Shown here one piece after another: positions 20,249 to 31,135 of a stretch of DNA of 64,000 bases. Both the position numbers and the translations under genes were made by a program. The stretch's first letter is position 1. The number at the start of each line of letters is the position of its first letter. The DNA comes from Escherichia coli (GTDB taxonomy: Bacteria; Pseudomonadota; Gammaproteobacteria; Enterobacterales; Enterobacteriaceae), in NCBI RefSeq assembly GCF_030013205.1, contig NZ_CP122648.1. One strand, written 5' to 3'. A model generated the notes under the pieces. That model saw only the letters and a program-made list of their open reading frames with translations. It searched no databases and was not told where the DNA came from.

Positions 20249-20554
20249 TCAGGCGAGTTTTGCCTGACTGATTTGACTAAGTGGCTCATTGACATCGAAA
20301 ACTTTGGCGACAACTTCCTCAACGCCGAGATTTTTCAGTCGGGCAGTATGTTTTTCCAGATAGGCAAGGGCGTTTTTTTCATCAGTAAAAAGGTAGATCC
20401 CACCGGCTTCGTGGTTCTTTTCACTTTCTGTCCATACCTTCCACAGAAAACCAGGTTCCTGATTAATCGACTCAGCAAGCGGTTTAAGCTGCTCAGCCAT
20501 TGCGTCGCCAAATGGGCCATTGAAAGAAAAATGAAGTTGTAACAAAGTTGCCAT
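20249..20554 (-). CDS. ydhR: putative monooxygenase YdhR (Dabb-type)
   Basis: 101-aa ORF recognised as YdhR. Confidence 0.85.
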
Positions 20555-20662
20555 AGCGATTCTCCTTCTGATAACGCATACGAAGACAGTGTAAATCTTT
20601 TAACGTATTGGATACAGAGAAGAAACAGAGGGAAAAAAGGAGAAGACCAGATTAAGAAAATC

Positions 20663-20739
20663 TGGTGCGTCCGAGTGGACTCGAACCACCGACCCCCACC
20701 ATGTCAAGGTGGTGCTCTAACCAACTGAGCTACGGACGC
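20663..20739 (-). tRNA. valW: tRNA-Val (anticodon GAC), valW-type
   Basis: Reverse complement reads GCGTCCGTAGCTCAGTTGGTTAGAGCACCACCTTGACATGGTGGGGGTCGGTGGTTCGAGTCCACTCGGACGCACCA with encoded CCA. Confidence 0.95.
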
Positions 20740-20743
20740 AGGA

Positions 20744-20820
20744 TGGTGCGTTCAATTGGACTCGAACCAACGACCCCCACCATGTCAAGGTGGTGCTCTA
20801 ACCAACTGAGCTATGAACGC
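20744..20820 (-). tRNA. valV: tRNA-Val (anticodon GAC), valV-type
   Basis: Reverse complement reads GCGTTCATAGCTCAGTTGGTTAGAGCACCACCTTGACATGGTGGGGGTCGTTGGTTCGAGTCCAATTGAACGCACCA; 4-nt spacer to valW. Confidence 0.95.
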
Positions 20821-27457: not shown

Positions 27458-28390
27458 ATGTGGTCAGAATATTCACTCGAAGTTGTTGATGCGGTAGCGC
27501 GTAATGGTAGTTTTAGCGCTGCGGCACAGGAGTTGCATCGCGTTCCTTCTGCGGTCAGCTATACCGTGCGTCAGCTGGAAGAGTGGCTGGCGGTGCCGCT
27601 GTTTGAACGACGTCACCGTGATGTGGAACTGACCGCTGCCGGGGCGTGGTTTCTCAAAGAAGGGCGCTCTGTTGTCAAAAAAATGCAGATCACCCGGCAG
27701 CAATGTCAGCAGATAGCGAACGGCTGGCGCGGTCAGTTAGCTATCGCAGTGGATAATATTGTCAGGCCAGAACGTACACGGCAGATGATCGTTGATTTTT
27801 ATCGCCATTTTGATGATGTCGAACTTCTTGTCTTTCAGGAAGTGTTCAACGGTGTCTGGGATGCGCTTTCCGACGGGCGCGTGGAACTGGCGATTGGCGC
27901 AACACGCGCGATTCCGGTAGGCGGTCGTTATGCCTTCCGCGATATGGGGATGCTAAGCTGGAGTTGCGTTGTTGCCAGTCACCACCCGCTGGCGTTGATG
28001 GATGGCCCGTTCAGCGATGATACGTTGCGCAACTGGCCCTCGTTGGTGCGCGAAGACACCTCGCGAACGCTACCTAAACGTATTACCTGGTTGCTGGATA
28101 ACCAAAAAAGACTTGTCGTGCCTGACTGGGAATCATCGGCAACCTGTATCTCGGCAGGATTATGCATAGGGATGGTGCCAACACATTTCGCCAAACCGTG
28201 GCTTAATGAGGGGAAGTGGGTGGCACTAGAACTGGAAAACCCCTTCCCGGATTCGGCATGTTGTCTGACATGGCAGCAAAATGATATGTCGCCTGCGTTA
28301 ACCTGGTTGCTTGAGTATCTCGGCGATAGTGAGACGCTGAATAAGGAGTGGCTGCGGGAGCCGGAAGAGACTCCCGCAACGGGTGATTAA
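27458..28390 (+). CDS. punR: LysR-family transcriptional regulator PunR (YdhB)
   Basis: 310 aa with N-terminal HTH; 4-nt overlap with purR stop region. Confidence 0.9.
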
Positions 28391-29412
28391 CGACGATAGT
28401 CGCGGAACGGGCCGTCAGCCACGGAGCGGCGTTCAATCAACCGCGGATGCACTTCAATGGATTGCGGTTCTTCGCGTTTATTGACGATACGATCCAACAG
28501 CATGTTGAACGCCGTTTCGCCCAGCGAATCTTTTGGCTGATGGATCGTGGTCAGCGCCGGCGTAAAATAGCGGGCGTTGCGCACGTTATCATACCCGATC
28601 AGCGAAACATCCTGCGGGACGCGCAGACCCATTTCATCAGCAGCACAAAGTGCGCCCATTGCCATGATATCGCCACCACAGAAGACGGCAGTAGGGCGAT
28701 GCGGCTGCGACAGGATTTGCTGCATGGCGCGATAACCAGATTCGGGTTCAAAGTCACCCTGCACAATCCAGCTTTCCGGCACCTTGATCATCGCTTCTTC
28801 CATCGCCTTCATAAAACCGGCAAGGCGGCCTGCGCCGGTGTTACGTTCCAGCGGGCCGGGGATAACGCCGATTTCGCGGTGACCGCGTTCAATCAGATAA
28901 CGCCCGGCCATGTAGCCGCCTTCGAACGCGTTATCAATGACCGCATCGGTGAAGTCAGCTTTTGCTTCACCCCAGTCCATCACTACCATTGGGATATGGC
29001 GATACTCTTCCAGCATCGCCAGCAACGGCTCTGGGTACTCAGAACACATCACCAGCAGACCATCGACGCGTTTTTGCGCCATCATCGACAGATAAGCCCG
29101 CTGTTTCTCAAGATTGTTCCACGCATTGCCCAGAATCAGGGTGTAACCTTTCTGGAAGCAATTTTTTTCAACCGCTTCAATGATCTCGGCAAAATAGGCC
29201 GCTTCGCTGCTGGTCGCCAGCAAACCGATAGACTTGGTGTGGTTAACCTTCAGACTACGCGCCACCGCGCTAGGGGAGTAGTGTAATTCTTTGATCGCTG
29301 CCCACACGGCGTTGCGCGTTTCTTCAGCGACGAAACGTGTTTTGTTGATCACGTGTGACACAGTTGTAGTGGAAACGTTTGCTCGTTTCGCTACATCTTT
29401 TATTGTTGCCAT
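28387..29412 (-). CDS. purR: purine repressor PurR (LacI family)
   Basis: 341 aa [33 protein letters not shown]... Confidence 0.97.
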
Positions 29413-29456
29413 TCCATTTCACTCCAGACCCTAACTTCAGCTCCTGCAAAATCGCA

Positions 29457-29472
29457 AGGTAAACGTTTGCCT
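29457..29472 (-). promoter_or_regulatory. PUR box (PurR operator) in the purR 5' region
   Basis: Minus strand reads AGGCAAACGTTTACCT, matching the PurR operator consensus ANGCAAACGTTTNCNT; purR is autoregulated. Confidence 0.6.
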
Positions 29473-29710
29473 TTACACACCTTACGCACAACAAAAGTGT
29501 TGCGGTACGCCGGAAAAACGACACGGAGCGTCAGGAAGGGGTCAATGGCCAGTACGCAAATAGTGTAAGCGTGGAATTTTGGCCGATCTTGACGAAAAGG
29601 GGAAGTGGTAAAAACACTTATCATTATAAATGACGGGAGATTTTTTCATCACAGTGTGTAAAAATGCGTAATATCACTTTTTGTGTGGTAATAAAAAAGG
29701 AGAAAACTTG

Positions 29711-29800
29711 ATGAGCACCGACCTTAAATTTTCACTGGTAACAACGATTATCGTCCTCGGTTTGATCGTGGCCGTGGGTTTGACTGCCGCGCTGCACTGA
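29711..29800 (+). CDS. ynhF: small membrane protein YnhF (29 aa)
   Basis: ATG...TGA ORF encoding MSTDLKFSLVTTIIVLGLIVAVGLTAALH with a GGAG RBS upstream; below the ORF-track size cutoff. Confidence 0.7.
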   Translation: MSTDLKFSLVTTIIVLGLIVAVGLTAALH

Positions 29801-29965
29801 TTTCCTCTCGAGGGAGCGCGTTCTCCCTCGCATCTCCTTCCTGTTTGTTAGCAAAATGGCAAAAGTGTTTTCTCTTTTTGTTATTTTCATTTTTTTGTGA
29901 TTGCTGTCATGCTTTCGCCACTTTAATGAATATCGCGTAATGACGCGAAGAGGTGGAGATAAGGC

Positions 29966-31135
29966 ATGAAAATTAACTATCCGTTGCTGGCGCTGGCGAT
30001 TGGTGCGTTTGGTATTGGGACAACGGAGTTCTCGCCAATGGGCTTATTGCCCGTCATTGCGCGCGGTGTGGATGTCTCGATTCCCGCTGCCGGAATGTTA
30101 ATCAGTGCCTATGCAGTTGGCGTAATGGTTGGCGCGCCGCTGATGACGCTTCTACTTTCTCATCGTGCTCGCCGCAGTGCGTTGATTTTCCTAATGGCGA
30201 TTTTCACGCTCGGCAACGTACTTTCCGCCATCGCGCCGGATTATATGACCCTGATGCTTTCTCGCATTTTGACCAGCCTGAATCACGGAGCATTTTTTGG
30301 TTTGGGTTCAGTCGTGGCCGCAAGCGTGGTGCCAAAACATAAACAGGCCAGCGCAGTTGCCACTATGTTTATGGGGTTAACCCTGGCAAATATCGGTGGC
30401 GTGCCGGCGGCGACCTGGTTGGGTGAAACCATCGGCTGGCGGATGTCATTTCTGGCAACGGCGGTGCTGGGAGTGATTTCAATGGTAAGTCTGTTCTTCT
30501 CATTACCTAAAGGTGGTGCAGGGGCACGACCTGAAGTGAAAAAAGAGCTGGCGGTATTAATGCGTCCGCAGGTGCTGTCTGCATTGCTGACGACGGTACT
30601 GGGAGCTGGTGCAATGTTTACCCTCTACACCTATATCTCTCCGGTACTGCAAAGTATTACCCACGCAACGCCGGTGTTCGTCACAGCAATGCTGGTGCTG
30701 ATTGGTGTCGGATTCTCTATCGGTAACTATCTCGGCGGCAAACTGGCAGATCGTTCAGTTAACGGCACGTTGAAAGGCTTTTTGTTGCTGCTGATGGTGA
30801 TTATGCTGGCAATCCCGTTCCTGGCCCGCAATGAGTTCGGCGCAGCTATTAGCATGGTGGTGTGGGGCGCTGCAACCTTTGCGGTCGTACCGCCGTTACA
30901 GATGCGCGTGATGCGTGTCGCCAGTGAAGCGCCAGGTCTGTCTTCATCAGTCAATATTGGTGCCTTTAATCTTGGAAATGCGCTGGGAGCAGCTGCTGGT
31001 GGTGCGGTAATTTCCGCTGGGCTGGGATACAGCTTTGTGCCGGTGATGGGGGCGATTGTCGCGGGACTGGCATTATTGCTGGTGTTTATGTCAGCCAGAA
31101 AACAACCTGAAACAGTTTGCGTTGCCAACAGCTAA
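29966..31135 (+). CDS. ydhP: MFS transporter YdhP
   Basis: 389 aa polytopic MFS protein. Confidence 0.9.
   Translation: MKINYPLLALAIGAFGIGTTEFSPMGLLPVIARGVDVSIPAAGMLISAYAVGVMVGAPLMTLLLSHRARRSALIFLMAIFTLGNVLSAIAPDYMTLMLSRILTSLNHGAFFGLGSVVAASVVPKHKQASAVATMFMGLTLANIGGVPAATWLGETIGWRMSFLATAVLGVISMVSLFFSLPKGGAGARPEVKKELAVLMRPQVLSALLTTVLGAGAMFTLYTYISPVLQSITHATPVFVTAMLVLIGVGFSIGNYLGGKLADRSVNGTLKGFLLLLMVIMLAIPFLARNEFGAAISMVVWGAATFAVVPPLQMRVMRVASEAPGLSSSVNIGAFNLGNALGAAAGGAVISAGLGYSFVPVMGAIVAGLALLLVFMSARKQPETVCVANS

Follow-up and report, generated by a model that had tools for sequence, protein, structure and literature searches.

Is an open reading frame (ORF) of only 29 codons, lying between purR and ydhP, a genuine gene, and if it is, what does its product do? 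The question is raised by a stretch of 64,000 nucleotides of Escherichia coli DNA (contig NZ_CP122648.1; hereafter the window, which always means the stretch at its full length), for which a first-pass annotation made from the letters had singled out the ORF and recognised it as encoding the small protein YnhF. Here we explore the locus by comparison with related genomes, with protein, structure and RNA family databases and with the literature. We conclude, with a probability of roughly 0.97, that the ORF at 29711-29800 is cydH (older names ynhF and cydY), the gene of a structurally characterised subunit of cytochrome bd-I, and hence a feature that is already known and well characterised in E. 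coli.

Methods

So that the peptide itself would not bias the sample, loci were retrieved with its neighbour PurR as the sole protein query, each species being represented by a single genome. The best 80 PurR-anchored loci were kept, covering about 25 Enterobacteriaceae genera, among which are Escherichia, Citrobacter, Salmonella, Enterobacter, Klebsiella, Raoultella, Kosakonia, Kluyvera, Trabulsiella and Franconibacter. As a control, nine other small ORF intervals of the purR-ydhP intergenic space were scored for intactness in identical fashion. Hydropathy was judged against the usual Kyte-Doolittle transmembrane threshold of about 1.6. The consensus structure of Rfam family RF02081 was projected onto an alignment of 81 sequences and covariation was compared with that in shuffles (n = 500).

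Results

The ORF and its translation signals

The locus consists of the following elements:

29711..29800, plus strand: cydH (ynhF) coding sequence, 29 codons plus TGA, product MSTDLKFSLVTTIIVLGLIVAVGLTAALH, a single transmembrane helix
29698..29702, plus strand: Shine-Dalgarno sequence AGGAG, 8 nt 5' of the cydH ATG, as read from the sequence
28387..29412, minus strand: purR, neighbour of cydH
29966..31135, plus strand: ydhP, neighbour of cydH, with sodB beyond it

On the plus strand positions 29711-29800 read ATG AGC ACC GAC ... CTG CAC TGA, which translates into MSTDLKFSLVTTIIVLGLIVAVGLTAALH. The ATG-initiated ORF that the first-pass annotation had placed at 29711-29800 is therefore exact, by sequence, by translation and by the coordinates of an identical RefSeq CDS. 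The Shine-Dalgarno-like GGAG that had been claimed upstream is present as part of AGGAG at 29698-29702, and the placement between purR and ydhP was borne out in the window as well as in RefSeq records. The peptide is strongly hydrophobic (GRAVY 1.63). In 19-residue Kyte-Doolittle windows the maximum, 2.53, is reached at residues 9-27 and again at 10-28, a transmembrane-grade value far over the threshold and in agreement with the single transmembrane helix that had been predicted.

Size by itself carries little weight here, since the ORF listing holds 77 ORFs of at least 20 aa within the 4.5 kb around cydH, so that 29 codons are not beyond chance. It is conservation that raises this ORF above chance. 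An antisense ORF of 52 aa on the minus strand (29732..29890) was also considered and rejected as unconserved, being intact in 2 of the 80 loci.

Conservation and coding signature

A full-length cydH homologue was found at every one of the 80 loci, on the strand divergent from purR and at a distance of about 295 nt from where purR starts. In all 80 the ORF has an ATG, a stop at codon 30 (63 TGA, 17 TAA) and no internal stop, and in essentially all a GGAG- or GGGG-type purine block precedes it at equal spacing. The nine control ORFs, in contrast, are intact in only 1 to 14 of the 80 loci.

The 80 loci comprise 78 distinct nucleotide sequences that encode 53 distinct proteins. Column entropy amounts to 0.47, 0.28 and 1.25 at codon positions one, two and three, respectively, and pooled pN/pS is 0.224 in frame versus 1.28 and 1.83 in the off frames. 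Eight residues, M1, L5, T11, T12, L16, I19, V20 and A26, are invariant, and all of these except the methionine are encoded by two to five synonymous codons each. Thus, purifying selection acts on the protein that cydH encodes, and the ORF is a genuine gene rather than a chance one. The lack of conservation in relatives, which the first-pass annotation had named as the observation that would speak against its reading, is not what we found: the ORF is intact at 80 of 80 loci with the substitution pattern of a coding sequence. That it falls under the usual ORF cutoffs, as had also been remarked, is correct for what is nonetheless a genuine gene of 90 nt.

Identity of the encoded protein

The RefSeq records inspected contain a CDS of identical coordinates (locus 2799-2888, corresponding to window 29711-29800), named cydH and described as 'cytochrome bd-I accessory subunit CydH'. 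For the peptide, the NCBIfam equivalog NF033411 (small_mem_YnhF / CydH) gives 50.2 bits, where the cutoff is 30 (E = 1.7e-13), and the match is full length, residues 1-29 aligning with profile positions 1-29 of 29; a search of MSTDLKFSLVTTIIVLGLIVAVGLTAALH against Pfam gave no family match. All 29 residues are identical to chain H of PDB entry 6RKO, E. coli cytochrome bd-I, as well as to chains of seven further PDB entries, deposited as 'Uncharacterized protein YnhF / Cytochrome bd-I ubiquinol oxidase CydH'. RefSeq name, full-length profile match and structural identity together confirm the YnhF identification, and none of the tests yielded anything that contradicts it. The earlier call was right in naming a small membrane protein; what it left out is the known role of that protein as fourth subunit of bd-I.

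Within E. coli the locus is nearly universal. A 553-nt intergenic query was present in 5425 of 5426 complete genomes and at least 80% covered in 5421. The intergenic DNA of the window is 100% identical to that of an O157:H7 strain and 99.8% to that of a K-12 derivative. Rare variants of the locus were seen in NZ_CP123240.1 (H1) and NZ_CP014488.1 (H12); one of these two strains has an IS1 inside the query interval, and in the other all but the final 12% of the query is missing. Both may be without normal cydH expression.

The purR-cydH spacer

Two elements of the spacer are needed for what follows:

29413..29710, plus strand: purR-cydH divergent intergenic region, an Rfam match and a length-conserved spacer
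29457-29472: PurR-box palindrome AGGTAAACGTTTGCCT in the purR leader region, fully conserved at 14 of its 16 positions (81 sequences)

The promoter and 5' leader of cydH must lie in the spacer, as must, for the opposite strand, those of purR together with the PurR operator. Its length varies only from 286 to 303 nt across the 80 loci and it contains several invariant blocks. One of these, 29459-29472, is the PurR box. A GalR/PurR-type site that corresponds to AGGTAAACGTTTGCCT was reported at ynhF/purR by GalR ChIP (PMC5110547); the palindrome belongs to purR autoregulation rather than to cydH. Other highly conserved blocks, TCAGGAAGGGGTCAATGGCC and GTGGAATTTTG..GATCTTGA.GAAAAGGGGAAG, lie at 29531-29550 and 29571-29605, and these may be promoter or regulator sites of either purR or cydH. 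In Salmonella a MarA/RamA ChIP peak was found in the purR<>ynhF spacer (PMC10268841).

A sigma-70 consensus scan identified no plus-strand site upstream of cydH. Upon relaxation of the scan two weak and poorly conserved candidates appeared, TTGACG at 29589 followed by an 18-nt spacer and AACACT, and TCATCA followed by a 17-nt spacer and TAATAT at 29669. The scan of the spacer upstream of cydH gave no convincing FNR, ArcA or CRP-like site.

Sequences downstream of cydH

The region 3' of the stop codon contains one further structural element:

29809..29830, plus strand: GC-rich hairpin, CGAGGGAG-loop-CTCCCTCG, beginning 9 nt past the cydH stop

The hairpin has a minimum free energy of -13.6 kcal/mol, and across 81 sequences 92.5% of the cells are paired. 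Six of its eight pairs change on both sides, versus 2.6 +/- 0.7 in shuffles, a number reached by none of the 500 shuffles, and its covariation exceeds that of all slid controls. Having no canonical U-tract (no T-run), it was passed over by the simple terminator scan. It probably forms the 3' end or a stabiliser of the cydH transcript. Between the hairpin and ydhP, at 29843-29870 on the plus strand, ATTGTTA followed by GCAAAAATCTTTTGC is conserved across genera; the GCAAAAATCTTTTGC region forms a short inverted repeat in most genera, which is degenerate in E. coli. This motif may be a regulatory or promoter element of ydhP.

Other observations in the window

Two tandem minus-strand tRNA genes, annotated as tRNA-Val in RefSeq, are located at 20666-20739 and 20747-20820. 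One of these is overlapped by a plus-strand match to the Rfam family 'HPnc0260 antisense RNA' at 20538-20701, which is probably a tRNA-antisense artefact of that family. The small RNA rydB is represented by a full-length Rfam match at 2484-2544 on the plus strand (81.6 bits, gathering score 50). Finally, ydhF is flagged as a pseudogene in the O157:H7 record; its rough counterpart in the window is stop-free, with the reservation that window and record differ by indels.

Discussion

Alternative readings of the locus

Rfam RF02081 (STnc550, 'Enterobacterial sRNA', 388 nt) matches here over its full length, at 29413..29803 on the plus strand, with 396 bits, the gathering score being 48. On this ground the locus might be taken for a non-coding sRNA of about 390 nt in which the 29-codon ORF is incidental, a reading we consider very improbable. 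The alignment corresponds to the whole purR-cydH spacer followed by the cydH coding sequence, which makes up the 3' third of the model as an unpaired tail. The RF02081 fold lacks covariation: 14 pairs change on both sides versus 14.0 in shuffles, 297 of 500 shuffles reaching 14, and further pair types number 52 versus 57.8 in shuffles (81 sequences). In addition, the palindromic PurR operator AGGTAAACGTTTGCCT supplies one of the 'helices' of the model. Given this absence of covariation, the operator 'helix' and the coding tail, STnc550 is best read as cydH mRNA plus intergenic region and not as an independent RNA gene. Against a purely non-coding function stand also the clear protein-level selection on the ORF and the presence of the peptide in solved structures, and none of the papers in the literature searched mentions STnc550. 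A milder variant, in which translation of cydH goes together with a regulatory RNA function of the 5' leader or of the entire mRNA, is unlikely as well, even though it can draw on the Rfam entry, on the spacer length being kept at 286-303 nt with invariant blocks in 80 species, and on the reported trimming by RNase G of a 5'-extended ynhF mRNA (PMC4191395). The variant would also suit the family's name, STnc-numbered candidates having come out of Salmonella transcriptome and Hfq pull-down screens. Much of the spacer's conservation is accounted for by purR, whose divergent promoter and leader lie in the same DNA along with the PurR operator, the fold does not covary, and the literature searched contains no target or phenotype. 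That the spacer of about 295 nt is transcribed as a long cydH leader, the RNase G-trimmed 'STnc550' RNA, with a regulatory role of its own we regard as a long shot. If true, the leader may, for example, link the production of CydH to purine or oxygen status or work in trans, and cydH would be a dual-function RNA locus.

The remaining alternatives concern the peptide itself. A longer product would result from initiation at the in-frame TTG 29681 (39 aa), where the program-made ORF list opens the frame, or at a TTG directly before the ATG (30 aa), which is found at codon -1 in 78 of 80 loci. However, the 39-aa form is intact in just 6 of 80 loci, the frame closing a median of 6 codons upstream, and the Shine-Dalgarno sequence lies 8 nt from the ATG versus 5 nt from the adjacent TTG. 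The PDB chains, moreover, have 29 residues and start with MST, and the published mass, with retention of fMet on the 29-mer according to work cited in PMC6853902, favours the ATG; a longer product is hardly credible. In size and hydrophobicity the peptide resembles type I toxins such as Ibs, Ldr or ShoB, and downstream the minus strand has a single weak promoter-like site (29910..29883), which could be imagined to drive an antisense RNA that controls a membrane-damaging peptide. The Rfam scan found no antisense RNA family, and the antisense ORF is not conserved. Moreover, cydH belongs to the core genome as a single copy, with the same syntenic position in 80 of 80 species and presence in the vast majority of the 5426 complete E. 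coli genomes, and its product has been resolved as a subunit of a purified respiratory enzyme; we give a toxin next to no chance. The ORF is therefore best taken as cydH, starting at ATG 29711.

CydH as a subunit of cytochrome bd-I

E. coli carries cydABX elsewhere in its genome, and according to the neighbourhood annotation these genes are absent from the 64-kb window. Since it is located far from cydABX, cydH is an orphan subunit gene; its position between ydhP and purR, outside cydABX, has been described (PMC6853902). In bd-I purified from E. coli, Thesseling et al. (2019) encountered an unexpected fourth subunit of about 3 kDa with a single helix, which LC-MS/MS showed to be YnhF (PMC6853902); its identification by mass spectrometry in the purified enzyme is also described in PMC8951039. 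The role of CydH (CydY) as the fourth subunit has thus been known since 2019 (PMC6853902), later high-resolution structures of bd-I contain it again, and reviews agree. Published cryo-EM and mass spectrometry have in this way shown that a peptide identical to the one encoded in the window is physically part of purified bd-I. Earlier work from 2008-2011, cited in PMC6853902, provided tagging and translation evidence for YnhF, and the same paper cites mass spectrometry for retention of the N-terminal formyl-methionine and a report that CydH is made at low oxygen. A dual membrane orientation is cited in PMC13232886. That study also recovered full-length CydH in a bacterial two-hybrid screen with RNase E, an interaction its authors put down to generic contacts between transmembrane helices (PMC13232886).

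The best account of the locus is as follows. Translation from ATG 29711 yields a 29-residue peptide that consists of little beyond one transmembrane helix, which inserts in the inner membrane and binds CydA of the cytochrome bd-I quinol oxidase. Its site is the cleft between CydA TM1 and TM9, opposite the site of CydX; a review describes the subunit in this cleft as stabilised by phospholipid (PMC8951039). There, CydH would shield heme b595 from the lipid phase and close an oxygen entry that is wide in the enzyme of Geobacillus. Blocking of this entry toward heme b595 has been proposed on structural grounds, as has the route left to oxygen, a narrower channel that starts in CydB and leads to heme d (PMC6853902), through which oxygen would then be forced. 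CydH is reportedly made preferentially at low oxygen, which is the condition of bd-I use. The channel-blocking or selectivity role is the proposal of the structural papers and derives from geometry; in the literature searched we found no kinetics of a CydH knockout or deletion. Against a strict need for CydH it can be said that bd-II and the mycobacterial bd work without such a subunit. Indeed, bd-II has no fourth subunit (PMC8585947) and in mycobacterial bd menaquinone binds at the site equivalent to that of CydH (PMC8951039). Homologues of CydH coincide with bd oxidases that have a long Q-loop (L-subfamily) in Proteobacteria (PMC8951039).

The finding as such brings no new biology, and bd-I is of interest as an antibacterial target. 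The locus does provide a useful positive control for genome scanning, being a gene of 90 nt, below ORF cutoffs, that was spotted by eye and could be validated purely by comparative sequence, that is, by intactness at 80 of 80 loci, pN/pS and control ORFs. As the family STnc550 appears to represent the mRNA of cydH with the intergenic DNA rather than a non-coding RNA, any sRNA annotated here needs careful reading.

Comparison with known systems

The protein of the window is the same as CydH/CydY/YnhF (UniProt A5A618; 6RKO chain H; NF033411) in sequence, length, position between purR and ydhP, and annotation. The other small subunits of bd oxidases, CydX of E. coli (37 aa), CydS of Geobacillus and AppX of bd-II, are like CydH single-helix proteins of about 30-40 residues that contact CydA (or AppC) in the membrane, mainly by hydrophobic interaction. 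We found no sequence similarity between CydH and CydX, CydS or AppX; the PDB search matched CydH chains only and the Pfam search nothing. CydX is encoded in the cydABX operon, whereas CydH is encoded elsewhere. The two also occupy opposite faces of the enzyme, CydX binding TM1, TM5 and TM6 of CydA on the face near heme b558 and CydH binding TM1 and TM9 near heme b595. Finally, the active site depends on CydX for its assembly or stability, whereas the role proposed for CydH is one of gating rather than assembly.
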